Source of the DNA: Armatimonadota bacterium
GTDB taxonomy: Bacteria > Armatimonadota > SYMT01
Direction: 5' to 3'
DNA length: 64,000 nucleotides
NCBI GenBank assembly: GCA_046292385.1
Contig: JBKBRF010000006.1
Coordinates: forward strand, 32,001-96,000
In this document: one piece after another, positions 31,621 through 47,795 of the stretch
Layout: every line of letters starts with the position of its first letter
Position numbering within the stretch: the first letter of the stretch is position 1
The notes under the pieces: generated by a model
Told to the model about the DNA's origin: nothing
The model's input: the letters and a program-made list of their open reading frames with translations, nothing else
The model's database searches: none
Translations under genes and position numbers: made by a program

Positions 31621-33063
31621 ATGATCAGCATCAAAGGCAATAAAGCACGGCTGTGTGATGGCATTACCCGCCGCGATTTTGTGCGCCTGGGGGCCATCGG
31701 CACCATGGGTCTCTCACTGCCCGCGCTGCTCCAGGCAGAGGCCGCCGCCAAGGAAGCGGCCCGCGCGGCGGGGAAGAGCTCGCCGCGTGAGAAGAACGTG
31801 ATCCTCTTCTTCCTGATGGGCGGGCAGTCCCAGCTCGACATGTGGGACATGAAGCCGAACGCGCCGGAGATGGTCCGCGGCGAGTTCAAGCCGATCAACA
31901 CCAGCGTGGACGGGATCCAGATCTGCGAGCACATGCCGGAGCTCGCCAAGCGAGCCCACAAGTTCACCATCATCCGGTCGATGACCCATCACGTGAAGAA
32001 CCACGCCCCGGCGGGGTACTTCGCTCTGACGGGCCACGTGCCGAAGCGGGACGTCAATAACTTCGGGCTCAACTTCGACGACTACCCGGCGGTCGGCTCC
32101 GTGCTCTCCCTGATGAAGCCGAGCACCCGGCCGGTGCCGTCGTACGTGCAGCTCTCGCCCTCGCTGGTGGGGGATACCGGCATCCAGATGCCGGGCTTCC
32201 ACGCCGGCGTGCTGAGCGCCAAGTACGACCCGCTGAAGGTGACGAACGACCCGAACGACCCCAGCTTCCAGGTGGAGGAGCTCTCCCTTCCGAACGGTGT
32301 GACCGACGACCGCTTCAAGGCGCGCCGGTCTCTGCTGCAGATCGTCGAGGACGAGTTCCCGCTGCTGGAGCAGTCGCCCGCGCTGGGGCGGATGGACAGC
32401 TTCTACCAGCGCGCCTTCAACATCGTCACCTCGCCGGAGGCGCGCAAGGCGTTCGACATCAACCAGGAGCCGCTGAAGCTGCGGGAGCGCTACGGCCGCA
32501 ACATCTACGCCCAGCAGCTTCTGCTGGCGCGCCGGCTGGTGGAGTCGGGGGTGCGCCTGGTGACGATCGTCTGGGGCGGCCCGATCAACGCGCCGCTCGA
32601 CTACTGGGACACGCACCAGGGCAACTTCCCCAAGCAGAAGGACAAGCTGATCCCGGTGTTCGACCAGTGCTACAGCGCGCTGATCGACGACCTGGAAGAC
32701 CGCGGCATGCTGGAGGACACGCTCGTCCTGGCGATGGGCGAGTTCGGCCGCACCCCGCGGGTGGGCCAGATCACCGCCAACGGCGGCACCGACAGCACCG
32801 GGCGCGATCACTGGCCGTTCTGCTACAGCATCACGCTCACCGGGGCCGGCATCCAGACCGGCCAGGTGATCGGCAAGAGCGACGAGACCACCTCCACCTA
32901 CGAGGAGCGGCCGGTCACGCCGCAGGACATGATCGCGACCATCTACCACGCACTGGGAGTGGATCACCACGCGGAGATGCACGACCAGTTGAACCGCCCG
33001 CTGCCGATCGTGCGGGACGGCTCGCCCGTTTACGAGCTCTGGGGCAGCCAGCCGAAGGCGTAG
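31621..33063 (+). CDS. DUF1501 domain protein
   Basis: TRRDFV, GGQSQLDMWDMKP, LLARRLVESGV, WDTH, GEFGRTP and GRDHWP. Confidence 0.92.
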   Translation: MISIKGNKARLCDGITRRDFVRLGAIGTMGLSLPALLQAEAAAKEAARAAGKSSPREKNVILFFLMGGQSQLDMWDMKPNAPEMVRGEFKPINTSVDGIQICEHMPELAKRAHKFTIIRSMTHHVKNHAPAGYFALTGHVPKRDVNNFGLNFDDYPAVGSVLSLMKPSTRPVPSYVQLSPSLVGDTGIQMPGFHAGVLSAKYDPLKVTNDPNDPSFQVEELSLPNGVTDDRFKARRSLLQIVEDEFPLLEQSPALGRMDSFYQRAFNIVTSPEARKAFDINQEPLKLRERYGRNIYAQQLLLARRLVESGVRLVTIVWGGPINAPLDYWDTHQGNFPKQKDKLIPVFDQCYSALIDDLEDRGMLEDTLVLAMGEFGRTPRVGQITANGGTDSTGRDHWPFCYSITLTGAGIQTGQVIGKSDETTSTYEERPVTPQDMIATIYHALGVDHHAEMHDQLNRPLPIVRDGSPVYELWGSQPKA

Positions 33064-40683: not shown

Positions 40684-41769
40684 TCACTGCGGCGGCTCCC
40701 AGATCTCCCACTGCACCCGCCGCAGGTCATACGCCTTCGGGTAGCGGAAGCGGCCCTTCCGCGCTCGGAGCCCGTCTTCCACCACGGCGAAGTCCAGGTC
40801 GAGGCCCTGCCGCTCCGCGGGAGTCAGCAGCCCCAGCGTCTGCTTCCGAGCCTCCGCCGGACCGGCGAGAAGCGAGGTGAGGGCGTAGAGCTGGATCACC
40901 GGCGCCTCCAGGCCCCATTCGGCTTCGCGCTGCTCGGACCTGAGCCAGTCCTTTGCGGCCCGCTGCTCAGCGCGCAGATACGCCGGGTACACCGCGCCAG
41001 CCTCCACGAAACGGCCACCCCGCCAACCCAGCACCATCGGGATGAAAGGCCCGCCCACGGTAGCATTCTTCCAGCCCGCGAAGCCGTCGTAGTCGGCCAG
41101 CAGCTCGAGCGCGTCGTCACTATCGACATCCTTCGGCTCCAGTCCGGTAATGCGTCGGGCACCGTAAGCGAGAAGACAGGCCGGCTTCGGGCCGAGGGAA
41201 TAGACGTAGTAGTTGGCCCAGATGTTATTCCCGCCGTTCCACTGGCAGAGGATCACCTCCGGCAGTCCGTCCTGCGTCAGGTCTCCGGTCCACTCCACGG
41301 AGACATCGAAGTCGGAGATGCGAGCGGCGGTTCTACCCCGTGGATCCCGGATCTCCAGGGTGGCGAGGGCGCCGTTCGGACGGTCGCGCTCGACCCACTT
41401 CCACAGCTTGCACGCACCGACTGCCTCCACCCGGAGCGGTGCTCGCGGATCCCACGAGGGCGGCTGGAAGCCGTTCGCCGCGACCCAGACGCGGCATATG
41501 GGGGAGAAGAAGACGAACGGCCACTCACGCCCGGTATAACCGTAGCTCCAGCCGTCCCGCTCCTCGGGGATAAGGCGGGGGCCAGGCCCCAGCGCCACCG
41601 GGCGTCCGAGCTCATCGGTCTGCTGACGGAGGGACGCGGCGGGCTGGCTGAAGTCGAAGACGACCGCCGCCGCACCGGCGTAGAGCAGGCCCACGACGAG
41701 CGAGAGCGCGATTCCGATGGTCAGGACGCGGAGGCGCCTAGCTGACTTCTTCTCGCGTAGTTCGTTCAT
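40684..41769 (-). CDS. Hypothetical membrane-anchored protein with DxxDG repeats
   Basis: N-terminal TM (VLTIGIALSLVVGLLY), GDLTQDGLPE and KDVDSDDALE. Likely start is the ATG at 41769. Confidence 0.55.
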   Translation of the reverse strand: MNELREKKSARRLRVLTIGIALSLVVGLLYAGAAAVVFDFSQPAASLRQQTDELGRPVALGPGPRLIPEERDGWSYGYTGREWPFVFFSPICRVWVAANGFQPPSWDPRAPLRVEAVGACKLWKWVERDRPNGALATLEIRDPRGRTAARISDFDVSVEWTGDLTQDGLPEVILCQWNGGNNIWANYYVYSLGPKPACLLAYGARRITGLEPKDVDSDDALELLADYDGFAGWKNATVGGPFIPMVLGWRGGRFVEAGAVYPAYLRAEQRAAKDWLRSEQREAEWGLEAPVIQLYALTSLLAGPAEARKQTLGLLTPAERQGLDLDFAVVEDGLRARKGRFRYPKAYDLRRVQWEIWEPPQ

Positions 41770-41992
41770 CCCCGGCGGGCCCTCCGCGCTGGCCGGTACG
41801 ACATCACGCCGCCTGAAGGGCCGCGCAAGGATACTGTTGGCGAAATCAGCTGAGCAGGATGAACACGAGCGGCCAAGCACTCCGGCGAGATTCCCCTAGC
41901 GGGGAAGCGGTGGCAAGCCACCGCACTCCACAGACTGCACCGGCGCAGTCTCCCTTTCGACGAGAGGGAATCTCTTCCGAGCTAGCCTGTGG

Positions 41993-42013
41993 AGATTCTA
42001 TGGTTCGCGTCAA
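41993..42013 (-). promoter_or_regulatory. -35 half of IS110 circle-junction promoter
   Basis: TTGACG at 42013-42008. After circularisation at CT it lies exactly 17 bp from TATGTT (43291-43286). Confidence 0.75.
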
Positions 42014-42073
42014 GCGGAAAGTTCGAGAGGAGCTCTCGCACGCAGCCCCGCGGAGCCGGCGGCGCCGAAAACA

Positions 42074-43105
42074 TCACGGGTTCGTCGCCGCCGGCTCCGC
42101 TTCGGTGGATCCTGCGGGGACCGGGGCGGGCTCACCCCGCTTCGGGCTCGCCGGCTGTCGGTAGACCCGCTCGGGGTCATACTCTTCCCCGTGCTTCACC
42201 ACCGCCCAACAGACTTTAGCGATCTTGCGGGCGACCGCATTCAACGCTGCCGTCTTCGCCAGACCTTTGGCCAACTCCCGCTCATACTGCTGGCGGAACG
42301 GACTGTCTTTGATCCGGACGTTCGACTTGGCGGCCAGATAGAGCAAGCGGCGTAGCTCGGCATCGCCTTCTTTCGTGAGGCCATACTCCCCCGCCCGCTT
42401 TCCCGATTGCCGTACCCGGATATCCAAGCCGATATACGCCACTACCTGATCCGCGTGGGCGAAGTCATGCGAGGTAAGCCGGGCCGCGAGGGCGGCGGAA
42501 ATCACGGGGCCGATGCCGGGGATCTTCCGCAGGGCCTTGGTGGCGGGGAACTTCTCCTTATCCTGCGCCCGCTGGGCGATCTGGCGATCCAGCGCCGTCA
42601 ACCGCGTCTTGAGGTCGGCGACGGCCTCGGCCAGCACGTCCGCGGCGTACGGGAGCTCGCGGCGCTGCTGCTCCAAGCTGGTGAGGGCGGACCGTAAGCC
42701 ACGGCGGGCGCGCAGGAGTTGTTCGAGAGCTTCCACGTCGGCGCTCTTCACCGGGAACGGGCGCAGCCCCTCTGCTTTGGGTCGGGAAGCGGCGAACATC
42801 GCCAGCCCCCGGGCCGCCAGGCGGTCGGTCGAAGCCCGAGTACTCAGCGAGCGGAGGTAGGCGTGCACTTTACGAGGCGGGGCCAAGAGGACGGTCCGTC
42901 CCGCTTCCCGGGCCTGGTGCACGACCAGATGGCAGTAGCGCCCGGTGGGTTCGACCACCAGGGGGACGTCCGCCGGGGTGCGGGCCAGGAGCTTCCGAAT
43001 GCCGGCCGGGGTGTTCGGCACGGAGCCTTCCCAGGCAATGCGTTCGGAAGGACGGTCGAAGAGGGCGCAGACGAGTTCGGCTTTGCTGACATCGACTCCT
43101 AACAT
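42074..43105 (-). CDS. IS110 family transposase/recombinase
   Basis: LGVDVSK, VEPTG, STDRLAA, IPGIG, RQSG, G..ELRRLLY and AVARK. The ATG at 43105 has a GGGAG RBS; the ORF track starts at 43138. Confidence 0.95.
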   Translation of the reverse strand: MLGVDVSKAELVCALFDRPSERIAWEGSVPNTPAGIRKLLARTPADVPLVVEPTGRYCHLVVHQAREAGRTVLLAPPRKVHAYLRSLSTRASTDRLAARGLAMFAASRPKAEGLRPFPVKSADVEALEQLLRARRGLRSALTSLEQQRRELPYAADVLAEAVADLKTRLTALDRQIAQRAQDKEKFPATKALRKIPGIGPVISAALAARLTSHDFAHADQVVAYIGLDIRVRQSGKRAGEYGLTKEGDAELRRLLYLAAKSNVRIKDSPFRQQYERELAKGLAKTAALNAVARKIAKVCWAVVKHGEEYDPERVYRQPASPKRGEPAPVPAGSTEAEPAATNP

Positions 43106-43127
43106 GTGGGTAGCTCCCGAGGGGTTC

Positions 43128-43280
43128 CTCTCCCGCACACTTGCGGTACATGGCCGGTCTCCTCACGCGTGAGGGCCGTGGGATTCCTCATCGGCGGTGA
43201 GAGGGAAGAGGAGGTCTTCTCCAGACGTCCGTCCCCGAAGGGCGGCAAGTGCGGATGACCTTCCTCTTCCTTCCCACCTG
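43128..43280 (-). ncRNA. Putative IS110 bridge RNA (target-binding and donor-binding loops)
   Basis: Two stem/internal-loop/hairpin modules, one with a cUUCGg tetraloop on the minus strand. Guides ATCCGCACT and TGGAG match the target; AGGAATC and GCAAG partly match the donor. The ends are approximate. Confidence 0.75.
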
Positions 43281-43505
43281 GAGCTAACATACAAGTGCGA
43301 ATGCTTGCTTTCGCGCCCCGCGCCAGCGGGGCACCGGAGAAGCTTCTCGATTTCGTCAACAGTATCCGCAAGCGCGTCACTCCGCGAAGAGTCGTGCGGC
43401 GGGACACTTCGACGGGGCTGCTGGAATGACCGTGTGCGCGGCCTCGCTTTCGTCTTGACTGTCCATTCCTGGAGGCGGGGGCGCGCTCCTTCCCGAGAGC
43501 AGCGA

Positions 43506-46500
43506 CTACCCGCGACGCGCCCAGACTTCCACGGGAACGCCGTCCCGGTCGCCGGACCAGAGCTGCTCCGTGCAGGTGCGGCGGAGCAGGTTCTTCCAGA
43601 GCTGGGCGTGGGCGAACGTCTCCTCGTCCGGGCAGAAGAGCGAGAAGACGGAGCGGGAGGCCACGAGGATCAGCTTCTGCTTGGCGCGGCTGAGCGCCAC
43701 GGTGAGGCGGCGCGGGTCGAGCAGGAACTTGCTGCTGGCGAGGAGGTACTCCGGGTCGCTCTCGGTGGCGCTGACGACGATGACGGTGCGCTCGCCGCCC
43801 TGGAACCGCTCCACGGTATCGACCGCCGACCGCGGCGGCCCGTTCTTACCCGCGACGGTGAGGAACGGGTAGGCGAGCTGGAGGTCGGCGCGCTGGGCGC
43901 GGTGCGGCACCACGATACCGAGCCCTTCCTCCGCGTCGAGCGCGTAGAGCCCCGCGTCGGAGAGCGCCTCCAGGACCGGCTCCACCAGGTCGCGCTCGAA
44001 GGCATTGCGGTTCTGGCTGGCGCGCTCGTCGTGGAGCACCACCACCAGCGGGTAATCGGGAGCGAGCACGGCGGCGACGAAGTCATCCGCCAGCTCCCGC
44101 GGCTCCAGCTGCTTGCGGCGGGCGGAGCGGTAGGGGATGCCGTCCTGCTGGTAGACCTCCCGCCGCAGGAACTCCGCCATCTCCGCGTGGAGGCGGAAGC
44201 TCTCCTCGAAGCGGATCACCGGCGGCGAGAGCGGCAGCAGGGTGAGGAAGAGCGACTCGTAGGCGCGGTACTCCTGGAAGGTGCGGCGCGGCTCCGCGGC
44301 CCAGTCGTGCTTCACGATCGGCGGCATCTGGCGGTGGTCGCCAACGACGATGAGCTGGCCGTCGGTGCGGAGCGCGAGACCGGCCATCACCGCTTCCGGC
44401 AGGTTCATCTGCGAGGCTTCGTCGAGCACCAGGCACTCCGCCAGGGCGCAGTCGAAGAGAGCCTTCGGCGATTTCTCCCGGACCATCCCGTAGATGCCGC
44501 CCGGCGTGGCGGCGGCGACGCACCACTGCTGGTCCTGCAGGGCATCGGCCGGCCTCGGATCTCCCTTCTCCCGGCGGGTCTCCTTCGCCAGCGGGATCAC
44601 GCCTTCCGGCGGCGCCTCGCGGCCGTCGATCCGGAAGAGCGGCACGTTCAGGAGGCGCGGGTCGAGGTATCGGTCGAAGAGGTCCCGCCGCTGGTCGCGC
44701 AGCTCCCGCAGCCGCTCCCGGACCTCCACGACGTTCTGGAGCAGCACGTCGGTCGCCGCGTGCGTCTTGCAGGAGACGAGGGCTCGGAGCGGCTGACACG
44801 CCGCCATCGCGCCCTGCAGCCGGGCAAAGAGGGCGAAGGCGGTGGAATAGCTCTTCCCGGTGCCGGGAGGGCCCTGCACCAGCAGCACCGGGTCGCCGCC
44901 GTGCCGGCCGATGAAGGCGCGCTTGCTCTCCTCGAAGTCGTGGAAGAGCCCCGCCGTCCGGAACGCCTCCAGCCCCTCCAGGAACCGCGCCTGCCCGGCC
45001 GCCGCTTCCGTGGGCCAGGCCACGCTCGCCGCCGCGCCCGGGGTGAGCCGCTCGTAGACGGCACTGCGCCCCGTCTGCGCGCCGCGCTCCAGCTCGCAGA
45101 GCGCCTCGACTACCTTCTTGCTCCAGTAGCCGTACCAGTTGTCCGGGGAGACGTCGAGCGAGTAGGCCATGCCTTCCCGCAGGGGCCGCTCGATCGAGCC
45201 GAAGACGAAGCCCTTCATCGCCGCGTTTCCGCGCGAGGCCTGCAGCTCTACCTCCAGCATCGCTCCGGTGATCCGGCCCGCGGCGTCCCGCTCCGGCTGG
45301 ATCTCGACCAGCTCCGCCCGCACGCCGTAGAGCATCTGCTTGGGGGTGGGGGTGAACTCCTGCCGATCCTCCTCCGGCAGCCGCTCGTCGACGGTCCAGC
45401 GAGGGTTCAGCACCACCCGCTCGCCGCGGCGGAGCGTGGTGAGCGCCAGGATCTCTTCCGCGGAGCAGTCGATCCCCTCCGTCTCCAGCCGCAGCCGCAC
45501 GCGGAGGCCTTCCTGGCTCCACTGGCAGGCGTCCCGGTCCTCTTTGGCGAGCTTCACCTTCTGCGCGTCCGGGTTCTGCTGCCGCCACTCCGCGTAGAGC
45601 CGGTCTTTCAGCAGCCGGCGGCGCTCGTTCTCCCGGTTGCGCTCCAGCACCTCGGGGTCCTGGTCTTCCGGGCAGAAGCGAGCGAGCAGCGTTTCCCCCA
45701 TCAGCACGCGGCGCTCCGGGGCGGCGTGGCGGATCGCCTTCCACTCGCCCAGCTCCACGTGCCGCTCGATCGTGACGAACTCGTCCAGCGCCTGGGCCAG
45801 CGAGCCGGCGCGCTCGCGGAACTGCGTCAGCGCCGTCAGGTCGAAGGCTCGCTTCTCCGTCAGCTTGTTGCCGCGGAAGTCGGCGGCGATCCGCTCCAGC
45901 GCTTCCAGCCGCCGCTCCTGGAATTCGCGGATCAGCTCCGGCGTGGCGGCGCGGTAGTCCGCGTAGTCGTCCCGCTTCCCGGCGGGCGGCTCCAGGTCGC
46001 CCCACGCGGCGTAGGCGTACTCCAGCGGGATCTGGCTGTTGAAGCGAGCCCGGCGCGTGTACCAGGCCTCCGCCTCCGGGTCGAGCGTGCCCCACTCGTC
46101 GAAGAGCCGGGCGCGGAACGTCTCCCGGAACGGAGCCCAGTCGAAGCCGAGGTGCGCCGCCACCGCCTGGAGCGACTGGCAGACCATCGGGTAGTTCTTC
46201 AGCTCCCGGATCTCGCGGTCGAGGAAGGTGGCGATCGGGGAGTCGAACGCCGCGAGCTGGGTCATGAAGTCGTAGAGCGCGGGCGCGGTCTCCAGCAGCG
46301 CGGAGAGGTGGCGGGAGAGCGCCTCCAGGAAGAGCCGCTGCTCGAAGCTGTTGTAGAAGACCAGGTGGACCGGCGCGGAGAGGGTGCCGTCCACCGCCGG
46401 CTCCACCAACTCGGCGACCGCCAGCAGCGTGTCGCGCATCCAGGCGGCCAGAAGCGCTCGCTCCCGCTCGGGCGTGTCGGGCGGCCCGTTGGAGAGGTGG

Positions 46501-47795
46501 ACCACGCTCCGGCTCCGTGCCGGCTCTCCGCCGGCGCAGGCGACCACCCGCGCGCCAACCAGGTAGAGCCGGTCGTGGAGGTAATCGTGCTGCGCGTCGA
46601 GGTAGATGCGGACCAGGTTCGGGTTCTGCTCCGCGTCGCAGTAGGGCAGGGAGCCGTAGCCGGAGCCGGGGATGGAGCGCGGCGCCTCCAGCGGATCGCC
46701 CTTCCACCCACGGTAGCGCCGCGCGCGGTGGATCAGCTCGTCGAGGCGCGGGCCGACCGGCCAGGTCGTCGCCGCGCGGGCGCACCGCCCCTCCTGGCCC
46801 GGCGTGGGCGAGAGACTCCAGTCCCGCGGCGCGTCCGGAGCCGCCGGCGCGGGCTCCTTCAGCGCCGCCAGCTCCGAGGCGGTAGAGATGCCGAGCCGCC
46901 GCAGCGCCGCCTTCTCACCCGCAGCCAGGTGCGGGATCAGCGCCAGGTCGTCGGTCTCGGCGCTCCACTTCAGGCAGAGCTCGTTGTAGAGGCAGCCGTC
47001 GCACTTGTAGCTCAGGTGGTAGGAGAGCTCCTCGAACGGCGCGGAGGCGATGCCGCGGGCGGTGGAAGCGGCGCCGGTCACCAGGTCGGCGACGGCATCG
47101 AGGTAGGCCTCCGGATCGGCGACGACCTCCAGCAGCGCGCCGTCCCACCCGAACCGGCGGCGGGTCTCCTCCCGCAGCGCCGCGTCGTCTCCGCCCTCTT
47201 CTCCGCGGAAAAGGAGAGCGGTCCCGATCTCCGCCGCGACCCCCGCCGAAGCGAAGAGCCGCCCCAGCATGGCGTGGTAGAAGGCGACCTGCAGCCGGTG
47301 CTCCACCCGGGCGTGCGCGGAGCTCTTGACGTCCGCGATCAGCACCTGCAGGGCGCCGTCCTCCGCGCGCTCCAGGCGCAGCAGGTCGGCGTCGCCGGTC
47401 AGCAGCCACCCCTCCACCTCTACCCGCAGACGAGGCTGCAGCAGGAGCAGGGCCTCGCCCGGAGGCAGCTCCACGGCGGCCCGCACGATGGCGGCGTTGT
47501 CGTCCTCCCGCTCCAGCGGCTCCCGCTGCTCCCCGAAGTGGACGGAGCGGAACCGCGCGCGCAGCGCCGCCTCCACTTCCCGCTCGAACTGGCGCCCGGA
47601 GCGAGTCAGCAGCGGCGGGATCGCCTGCGGCGCCACGTCGTACTCCCGCAGGAACCGGGAGCCGTGCTGCGCCTGGTGCAGCCGCAGCCGCAGGTAGCGG
47701 GAGCACTGCTCCAGCCGGACGAACTGCGAGATATCGGTGGGGCTCACCCGCAGCGGCGCGGAGGAGGGAAGGAGCGGTAGGAAGACGGGGGGCAT
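43506..47795 (-). CDS. Dna2/TM0106-like Fe-S RecB-type nuclease fused to SF1 (DNA2/NAM7) helicase
   Basis: Nuclease motifs SPTDI..C, GDADLL, ADVKSS, QVAFY and CDGCLYNELC. Helicase motifs QGPPGTGKS, DEASQ, GDHRQ, TVERFQGGE and VALSRAK. Confidence 0.85.
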   Translation of the reverse strand: MPPVFLPLLPSSAPLRVSPTDISQFVRLEQCSRYLRLRLHQAQHGSRFLREYDVAPQAIPPLLTRSGRQFEREVEAALRARFRSVHFGEQREPLEREDDNAAIVRAAVELPPGEALLLLQPRLRVEVEGWLLTGDADLLRLERAEDGALQVLIADVKSSAHARVEHRLQVAFYHAMLGRLFASAGVAAEIGTALLFRGEEGGDDAALREETRRRFGWDGALLEVVADPEAYLDAVADLVTGAASTARGIASAPFEELSYHLSYKCDGCLYNELCLKWSAETDDLALIPHLAAGEKAALRRLGISTASELAALKEPAPAAPDAPRDWSLSPTPGQEGRCARAATTWPVGPRLDELIHRARRYRGWKGDPLEAPRSIPGSGYGSLPYCDAEQNPNLVRIYLDAQHDYLHDRLYLVGARVVACAGGEPARSRSVVHLSNGPPDTPERERALLAAWMRDTLLAVAELVEPAVDGTLSAPVHLVFYNSFEQRLFLEALSRHLSALLETAPALYDFMTQLAAFDSPIATFLDREIRELKNYPMVCQSLQAVAAHLGFDWAPFRETFRARLFDEWGTLDPEAEAWYTRRARFNSQIPLEYAYAAWGDLEPPAGKRDDYADYRAATPELIREFQERRLEALERIAADFRGNKLTEKRAFDLTALTQFRERAGSLAQALDEFVTIERHVELGEWKAIRHAAPERRVLMGETLLARFCPEDQDPEVLERNRENERRRLLKDRLYAEWRQQNPDAQKVKLAKEDRDACQWSQEGLRVRLRLETEGIDCSAEEILALTTLRRGERVVLNPRWTVDERLPEEDRQEFTPTPKQMLYGVRAELVEIQPERDAAGRITGAMLEVELQASRGNAAMKGFVFGSIERPLREGMAYSLDVSPDNWYGYWSKKVVEALCELERGAQTGRSAVYERLTPGAAASVAWPTEAAAGQARFLEGLEAFRTAGLFHDFEESKRAFIGRHGGDPVLLVQGPPGTGKSYSTAFALFARLQGAMAACQPLRALVSCKTHAATDVLLQNVVEVRERLRELRDQRRDLFDRYLDPRLLNVPLFRIDGREAPPEGVIPLAKETRREKGDPRPADALQDQQWCVAAATPGGIYGMVREKSPKALFDCALAECLVLDEASQMNLPEAVMAGLALRTDGQLIVVGDHRQMPPIVKHDWAAEPRRTFQEYRAYESLFLTLLPLSPPVIRFEESFRLHAEMAEFLRREVYQQDGIPYRSARRKQLEPRELADDFVAAVLAPDYPLVVVLHDERASQNRNAFERDLVEPVLEALSDAGLYALDAEEGLGIVVPHRAQRADLQLAYPFLTVAGKNGPPRSAVDTVERFQGGERTVIVVSATESDPEYLLASSKFLLDPRRLTVALSRAKQKLILVASRSVFSLFCPDEETFAHAQLWKNLLRRTCTEQLWSGDRDGVPVEVWARRG

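Follow-up and report, generated by a model that had tools for sequence, protein, structure and literature searches.

The system with which the present locus invites comparison is IS621 of Escherichia coli, an insertion sequence (IS) whose recombinase, built from a RuvC-like DEDD domain, a coiled coil and a Tnp domain with a catalytic serine, is guided by a 177-nt bridge RNA. Thousands of natural pairs of bridge RNA and target have been analysed computationally (Durrant et al. 2024, PMC11208160). In IS621 the left donor guide (LDG) is reported to be 8 nt long and to end on the core C, while CAAG in the right donor guide (RDG) pairs with donor bases C8-G11, the G preceding it pairs with T12 in a non-canonical way, a further two bases flip out and an AU pairs with A13-T14 (Hiraizumi et al. 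2024, PMC11208158). Integrated IS621 is described as expressing its RNA weakly, and excision may rest mainly on recognition of the donor arm (PMC13626964; bioRxiv 10.64898/2026.08.31.748434). We analysed a 64,000-nt stretch of the genome of an Armatimonadota bacterium (positions 32,001 to 96,000 of contig JBKBRF010000006.1, hereafter the window), which contains an IS110-group insertion sequence of about 1.3 kb at 43295-41993 on the minus strand. The open reading frame (ORF) of this element is preceded by a left end of 188 nt, and we consider it very likely that this leader encodes a bridge RNA gene of the IS621 type. The two elements have in common the protein architecture, the CT core, the placement of the RNA in the left end and a promoter that is predicted to be rebuilt at the circle junction. 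In both, a target loop is followed by a donor loop, each with the order stem, left guide, stem-loop and right guide, the left guides being in sense and the right guides in antisense, and both have an LDG that ends on the core C, an RDG in which CAAG is preceded by a G wobbling with T12, handshake guides, and targets that resemble repetitive extragenic palindromic (REP) sequences. The right donor bases 8-14 of IS621, which are C, T, T, G, T, A and T (PMC11208158), are the same as CTTGTAT in this element.

The boundaries of the element were defined from the window sequence and from a search of its own genome (G000, 7.04 Mb in 91 contigs, the window being C6:32001-96000), using as query the element with 47 and 45 nt of flank. 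At more than 25 other places in the genome the two flanks adjoin with an overlap of 2 nt, these being empty sites with a single CT, and because of this overlap the length of the element is 1,301 bp when one CT is counted. A contig of run X2 skips exactly 1,301 bases, from 41992 to 43294. We rejected this skip as proof of excision because about 50 empty copies of the repeat exist in the genome, and the contig represents one such empty repeat. A further skip joint, 41942-43294, occurs in contigs of run X1 (side 25). The element has no terminal inverted repeats and is inserted at a CT core with CT on both junctions, as is characteristic of the IS110 group; its left end begins with TGTATG (43293), its right end stops at ATAGAAT-CT (41993), and the predicted circle junction reads ATAGAAT-CT-TGTAT. 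The left flank with the core reads ATTCGCA-CT (43302-43294, minus strand). The target is a GC-rich repeat of about 240 bp, present in about 45-60 copies in the genome and often found at contig ends, and the insertion point is in the 3' arm of a REP-like hairpin, GCGAA..TTCGC-ACT/CCACA (the stroke marks the insertion). One copy of the repeat is split by the element into window positions 43367-43294 and 41992-41829. The repeat also holds a long inverted repeat, GCACTCCACAG, with its complement about 110 nt further on, and this complement provides a second near-target in the opposite orientation, CACCGCACTCCACA, of which there are 51 copies.

A first-pass annotation, made from the letters of the window alone, had proposed a two-loop bridge RNA upstream of the recombinase gene, and all the strings, stems and loops that it listed were found on the minus strand where it had placed them. 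In the target loop, the left target guide (LTG) ATCCGCACT matches the left flank plus core, ATTCGCACT, at 8/9 positions, and TGGAG (43223-43219) within the right target guide (RTG) is the exact reverse complement of CTCCA, both as the annotation had stated. With guide lengths as defined by the family (below), the two guides program ATCCGCA-CT-CCAGA, which agrees with the site that had been given as roughly ATCCGCACTCCA. The A at 43218 that follows the RTG stands at the position of the IS621 handshake guide, opposite donor T7. Matches of this kind might arise by accident in a GC-rich and repeat-rich genome, and indeed, when the mononucleotides of the 188-nt left end were shuffled 20,000 times, the 6/7 match to the right flank alone was recovered in 4,101 cases; many of the targets in the family are, in addition, C-rich and alike. 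However, only 13 of 20,000 such shuffles contained both the sense match of 8/9 to the left flank and, 15-70 nt after it, the antisense match of 6/7 to the right flank, and none of 10,000 permutations reached the family-wide excess of cognate matches that is described next, which makes chance hardly credible as an explanation.

Relatives of the element were collected from several sources. None of the six other genomes of the same family contained a close relative at E <= 1e-20, and 9 of 400 sampled other genomes of the phylum hold relatives with 46-64% identity, one of them an Abditibacterium metagenome-assembled genome (MAG). A scan of metagenomes gave 80 loci at 43-69% identity. A search of genome contigs with a single protein returned 598 pattern matches, none of which was a relative; repeated with an alignment, it returned four close loci (three in a single Abditibacterium MAG and one Thermomicrobiales), the other 76 being distant IS110 relatives that were left out. 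We examined 100 loci, 70 of which have a CT/TGTATG left end and at least 150 nt before the ORF, and 45 of these 70 also have a right end ATAGAATCT with flank. As CT/TGTATG was a selection criterion, loci with other left-end starts (L033, L038 and L129, for example) were left out, as were those cut by contig ends. Unique leaders numbered 59, and nine longer than 215 nt were excluded from the alignment, leaving 50.

From the 50 leaders, RNAalifold predicted a stem around the first loop with its inner stem-loop, a second outer stem of nine pairs, formed by CTCTCACCGC with GCGGGAGAG, and a second inner stem-loop. Double-sided changes were found in 20 of the 24 predicted pairs, or 20 of 22 after two invariant donor-loop pairs had been removed. 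Over these 22 pairs in four helices, 91.0% of the cells are paired, compared with 73.9% in shuffled controls (0 of 500 as high) and 37-44% with slid partners, and the covariation score is 0.514 versus 0.203 for shuffled leaders. The annotation had also called for the loop guides to be examined for covariation with their flanks among homologues, and this was done without an alignment, by sliding each flank along each target module and scoring its best match without gaps. For the left flank (9-mer, sense; 45 distinct flanks) the cognate mean was 6.91 against 6.02 for non-cognate modules, and for the right flank (8-mer, antisense; 25 distinct flanks) it was 6.80 against 5.55, and neither cognate mean was reached by any of 10,000 permutations. 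The wrong-sense controls were flat, at 5.91 against 5.90 on the left and 5.44 against 5.54 on the right. In an aligned test, the reverse complement of the RTG was identical to the right flank at frequencies of 1.00, 1.00, 0.95, 0.91, 1.00, 0.86 and 0.86 from position +1 to +7, dropping to 0.23 from +8, with a non-cognate baseline of 0.24-0.41 (22 distinct guides of 30). The LTG was identical to the left flank at 0.53-0.93 over positions -9 to -2 (43 distinct of 46; a register shift of one was allowed for cognate and control pairs alike), and the last T of the core was matched in only 0.51 of the family. From this profile of guide and flank identity it follows that the clade reads about 7 nt, the CT and a further 5 nt.

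The second loop, by comparison with the IS621 scheme, matches the element's own joined ends, as would be expected of an IS110-type element. The LDG GAGGAATC makes five Watson-Crick pairs and two G-T pairs with ATAGAATC of the right end, with one mismatch; in the RDG, CAAG (43143-43140) is complementary to CTTG, the G before it, at 43144, forms a wobble with T12, and an invariant AU five bases upstream may be assigned to the same guide. The earlier proposal that the donor segments fit ATAGAAT-CT-TGTAT, partly through G-T wobble, was thus borne out, and the segments correspond to those of the IS621 scheme as given in PMC11208158. The handshake guide U 43139 pairs with A7 of the target. Of the 50 leaders of the family, 48 have after CAAG a base that pairs with target position 7, a value not reached in any of 10,000 shuffles; the pairs are G:C in 45 leaders and U:A in three, these being all three targets with an A, this element included, although the U:A cases amount to at most two independent events. 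A promoter also appears when the ends are joined: in 56 of 58 distinct right ends there is a -35 box of the type TTGACx that comes to lie 17 nt (46) or 18 nt (10) from TATGnT. In the integrated state of the present element, the -35 position reads GCGAAA. Guide and flank covariation, covarying helices, the handshake base and the junction promoter all accord with the two-loop bridge RNA that the annotation had proposed.

One might instead see in the leader no more than a structured 5' untranslated region by which translation or stability of the recombinase is controlled, its resemblance to the flanks having no guiding role. It does continue into the ORF without a terminator, the 3' G-rich strand lies beside or over the ribosome-binding site in some members of the family, and two mutually exclusive helices have the look of a switch. 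Nevertheless, the loop segments change with the flanks in a strand-specific manner across the orthologues, the wrong-sense controls being flat, the handshake base tracks target position 7, and the protein is homologous to enzymes that have been shown to need such an RNA (PMC11208160). We therefore regard this explanation as very improbable.

With the anatomy, the exact boundaries, the covariation of helices and of guides with flanks, the handshake base and the conserved promoter as observed, a bridge RNA gene would work as follows, transcription, binding by the recombinase, recombination and the mode of leaving the site being proposed by analogy. The element would leave the chromosome, its right and left ends joining at the CT core. 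At the joint, TTGACG from the right end (-35 box) and TATGTT from the left end (-10 box) would come to stand 17 nt apart, and transcription would start about 15 nt into the left end. In the resulting RNA, the guides of the target loop would together specify ATCCGCA-CT-CCAGA; in the donor loop, GAGGAAUC would read the right end and AU...G-CAAG the left end, and so the joined ends of the element itself, ATAGAAT-CT-TGTAT. Target base 7 would have its handshake guide in the U following CAAG. With this RNA, the DEDD/Ser recombinase could then recombine the circle into the REP-like hairpin within a copy of the 240-bp repeat. The positions of all these features are collected in Table 1.

Table 1. Features of the element and of its insertion site, in window coordinates.
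Feature	Positions	Strand	Basis or remark
Left target flank (LT), ATTCGCA	43296..43302	-	part of REP-like hairpin inside the ~240-bp genome repeat
Left copy of CT core	43294..43295	-	flanks overlap by 2 nt at empty sites
Predicted junction-promoter -10 box, TATGTT	43286..43291	-	left-end nt 3-8; TATGnT in all 59 unique left ends
Target-loop stem, 5' strand, GGTGGGAAGGAAGAGGAAGGTC	43257..43278	-	folding, family duplex test
Outer-stem part, GAAGGAAGAGGAAGGTC	43273-43257	-	sequence as given by the first-pass annotation
Left target guide (LTG), ATCCGCACT	43248..43256	-	same sense as left flank plus core
Target-loop inner stem-loop, GCCGCCC-UUCG-GGGACGG, bulged A	43229..43246	-	helix 2 covaries, 92% paired
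Right target guide (RTG), TCTGGAG	43219..43225	-	antisense to CT-CCACA, 6/7
Target-loop stem, 3' strand, GACCTCCTCTTCCCTC	43201..43216	-	folding, covariation
Donor-loop stem, 5' strand (common mid strand), CTCTCACCGCC	43193..43203	-	helix 3 covaries, 93% paired
Left donor guide (LDG), GAGGAATC	43182..43189	-	AGGAATC at 43188-43182
Donor-loop inner stem-loop, CCTCAC-GC-GTGAGG, within GG..CC base	43153..43180	-	helix 4 covaries
Right donor guide (RDG)	43138..43151	-	AU at 43151-43150, then bulge, GCAAG at 43144-43140
Donor-loop stem, 3' strand, GCGGGAGAG	43128..43136	-	covariation; fold with 5' end blocked
IS110-family recombinase, 343 aa	42074..43105	-	Pfam domains, structure matches
Perfect 13-bp hairpin around recombinase stop codon, in right end, GGAGCCGGCGGCG..CGCCGCCGGCTCC	42052..42098	-	sequence; kept with changes in variant B
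Predicted junction-promoter -35 box, TTGACG	42008..42013	-	right end; 17 nt from -10 box after joining of ends
Right end (left donor, ATAGAAT) and right copy of CT core	41993..42001	-	CT at 41994-41993
Right target flank (RT), CCACA	41988..41992	-	core plus flank, CT-CCACA, at 41994-41988

The recombinase has both Pfam domains of the family, DEDD_Tnp_IS110 (PF01548; residues 2-149, 1.3e-18) and Transposase_20 (PF02371; residues 190-275, 1.7e-21). Among solved structures the best match is the ISCro4 recombinase (PDB 9t56; E 4.5e-22 over residues 2-314), and the IS621 recombinase (PDB 8wt6) is matched by phmmer at E 4.2e-20 over residues 47-313. Catalytic residues D5, E52, D94 and S234 are present.

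The same genome carries a sister of this element. Besides the copy in the window (variant A), there is a variant B, of which we found seven left ends, with 93-97% identity, and seven right ends, with 84-91%; all of these stop at contig ends, and the interior of variant B is absent from the assembly. Run X1 also contains variant A of the window without differences, with A and B as parallel contigs whose depths, about 59-68 for A and about 426-476 for B, indicate one copy of A to approximately eight of B; the ORF of B is about 90% identical. The left guide of variant B is ACCCGCACT, and its seven left flanks end in TTCCGCACT (three), TCCCGCACT (three) and TACCGCACT (one). Its right guide has CTCCAAA as reverse complement, and six of the seven right flanks begin with CTCCAAA. 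Between 43101 and 43299 the two variants differ at five bases, namely LTG base 43255, RTG base 43224, both members of the stem pair 43264/43210 and the hairpin-loop base 43168. The change of the pair, from G-C to A-U in the target-loop stem, is compensatory, and all helices are preserved between A and B. The site of the repeat, ATTCGCACTCCACA, present in 50 copies, has two mismatches to the guides of A and three to those of B, and for a second site, ATTCGCACTCCAGA, present in three copies, these numbers are one and three. Both guide changes in variant A bring its guides closer to the abundant 240-bp repeat. The two variants, with guides that differ in step with target repeats, thus provide a natural example, possibly a snapshot, of retargeting.

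Several observations weigh against the presence of a working bridge RNA gene in this leader. The sole contig from an RNA library (X15, a small share) covers 42601-42812, inside the ORF and outside the leader, contigs in any case being unable to reveal RNA ends; three runs labelled 'metatranscriptomic WGS' (whole-genome shotgun) are probably DNA. A search of 41500-43800 against Rfam 15 at permissive thresholds gave no match to a bridge-RNA family, but only sub-threshold noise from microRNA, CRISPR-repeat and snaR families that is due to long hairpins, the one at 42098-42052 accounting for the microRNA-like part. Of the eight positions of the LDG, two are wobbles and one is a true mismatch. Pairing in the donor loop, moreover, lies beyond the reach of the covariation test and can be compared only with the IS621 scheme, because there is almost no variation in the family either at the element ends (AACCATAGAATCT, TGTATGGT/AT) or in the two strands of the donor loop (GATGA(A/G)GAATCC, ATG..CGCAAGG). 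The minimum-energy fold of the single sequence forms the target module and not the outer stem of the donor loop, and in 43 of the 50 family members the 5' pairing of the strand common to both stems is predicted to be dominant. Guides and target disagree at 2 of 14 positions, the third base of the LTG and RT position +6. Residue 97 of the recombinase (codon 42817-42815), which aligns with D105 of IS621, is Ala, as in only 3 of 93 related loci, the other 90 having Asp. Finally, variant A occurs once in the assembly.

The last three of these points would also be explained if the leader were a genuine bridge RNA by descent in a copy that is now a decaying, immobile relic, with a crippled recombinase and drifted guides. 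The catalytic set of IS621 is D11, E60, D102, D105 and S241, and mutation of D105 abolished its recombination (PMC11208158); a single copy of variant A against about eight of variant B would likewise fit a loss of mobility. On the other hand, the ORF is uninterrupted, and D5, E52, D94 and S234 of the catalytic set are in place. Variants A and B have in common a unitig, 42624-42823, that shows no differences at a summed depth of 512.6 and spans codon 97, so that multi-copy variant B probably has the same Ala and has nevertheless spread. The notion that an Ala97 copy is simply dead is weakened by this unitig. Two unrelated lineages (L036 and L151) also have Ala at this position, and the three Ala97 proteins are only about 50% identical to each other. 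The differences between the RNAs of A and B keep all the helices, and natural IS110 elements mostly show 0-2 guide mismatches (PMC11208160). An immobile relic is thus possible but unlikely.

The folding of the leader RNA was examined as the first-pass annotation had suggested. The 196-nt leader forms the target module with a z score of -4.0, none of 200 shuffles folding as well, and for the 155-nt core the value is -3.0, with one shuffle in 200 as good. Both outer stems that the annotation had drawn are in the sequence and covary in the family, but they overlap by 3 nt (43203-43201). The donor outer stem, which covaries in the 50 leaders, is missing from the single-sequence minimum-energy fold unless the first 9 nt are blocked: CUCUCACC pairs there with 5' GGUGGGA instead of with the 3' strand, the first 7 nt of GGTGGGAAGGAAGAGGAAGGTC being a rival to the donor-loop stem for CTCTCACC, and with these nucleotides blocked the donor stem forms at -64.6 rather than -72.6 kcal/mol, or 8 kcal/mol higher. 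The C-rich mid strand (43203-43193) is in fact complementary both to the 5' end (43278-43272) and to the 3' strand (43136-43128), and all three covary in the family. Because the MAFFT alignment is poor over the 5' 60 columns, the helix between the 5' strand and the mid strand was tested by duplex energy; across the 50 leaders cognate duplexes averaged -17.8 kcal/mol and non-cognate ones -13.6, and for the mid strand with the 3' strand the values were -15.8 and -11.5, with 0 of 10,000 permutations reaching either cognate mean. In 45 of 50 leaders the two duplexes have six or more of the 13 mid bases in common, and several types of pair occur at each position.

This complementarity of the mid strand to both other segments implies that the stems are alternatives. 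We offer as a speculation, and a rather doubtful one, that the bridge RNA of this clade is bistable by design, with the target-loop stem extended or the donor-loop stem closed, never both. In the synaptic complexes of IS621 the target loop and the donor loop come from two different RNA molecules (PMC11208158), and for this reason the mid strand may decide which molecules present a target loop and which a donor loop. Another possibility is that it links the formation of the loops to translation of the recombinase. If real in the RNA, the common strand is relevant to the question of how two loops of one RNA are delivered to a complex that contains two RNAs.

Some further observations were made along the way. 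A second, different IS110-family element (L032), with 31% protein identity, makes up the whole of contig C91 (1,413 bp). It has its own right end, TTGACA..ACGGTATCT, and its leader contains a copy of ACGGTATCT that resembles its own left donor guide. We considered C91 as the interior of variant B and rejected it, C91 being a different element. In three metagenome loci (L143:1008-1030, L158:1136-1160 and L162:1053-1075) a right end (...ATAGAATCT) runs directly into a left-end start, TGTATGG or TATATG.., and these joints may represent circle junctions or tandem copies, or may result from wrap-around during assembly of an element with multiple copies. A metagenome leader (L152:208-557) contains two tandem modules resembling the target loop, with differing left guides, which may reflect nesting or duplication of the left end. 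In the window, the gene immediately upstream of the repeat (43506-47795, minus strand) encodes a protein of 1,429 aa.

In the IS1111 group, the guide RNA is located downstream of the recombinase gene. The seekRNAs of these elements, reportedly described by Siddiquee and colleagues in 2024, are said to guide a DEDD/Ser recombinase of the same superfamily to its target. We rejected this layout for the present element, as its guides are upstream of the gene (43256-43138) and its right end, 79 nt long (42073-41995), contains only the stop-codon hairpin and the -35 box. ISCro4 / IS622 (bioRxiv 10.1101/2025.05.14.653916) belongs to the same family and is a distant relative, likened here by protein alone. 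ISPpu10 of Pseudomonas putida, an IS110 element of another host and clade, enters multiple copies of one conserved intergenic repeat, as does the element described here, and the paper that describes it proposes a 'sequence-structure dual-match' (bioRxiv 10.64898/2026.03.19.712850).

The element is a well-supported further member of the bridge RNA system described in 2024 and brings no new mechanism; the known one is unchanged by these results. To call it a new and potentially reprogrammable ortholog, as the annotation had done, was correct in that it is a further member, but overstated for a system known since 2024, for a reprogramming that would be a prediction, and for a recombinase with Ala at the equivalent of D105. 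The clade may already be in the supplementary orthologue tables of Durrant et al. 2024. What these results add is a documented bridge-RNA clade with clear guide rules, found in Armatimonadota, one Thermomicrobiales genome and metagenome contigs. It differs from IS621 in several respects. Similarity between the two recombinases is weak, and the fourth DEDD residue here is Ala; only 51% of the clade has an LTG that matches the last T of the core; and the RNA lacks both a distinct 5' stem-loop and a linker from one loop to the next, a single strand being used in both stems, and has a longer bulge in the RDG. The right target guide, of 7 nt (CT and five more) where IS621 has 4, may be of interest in searches for more specific orthologues.

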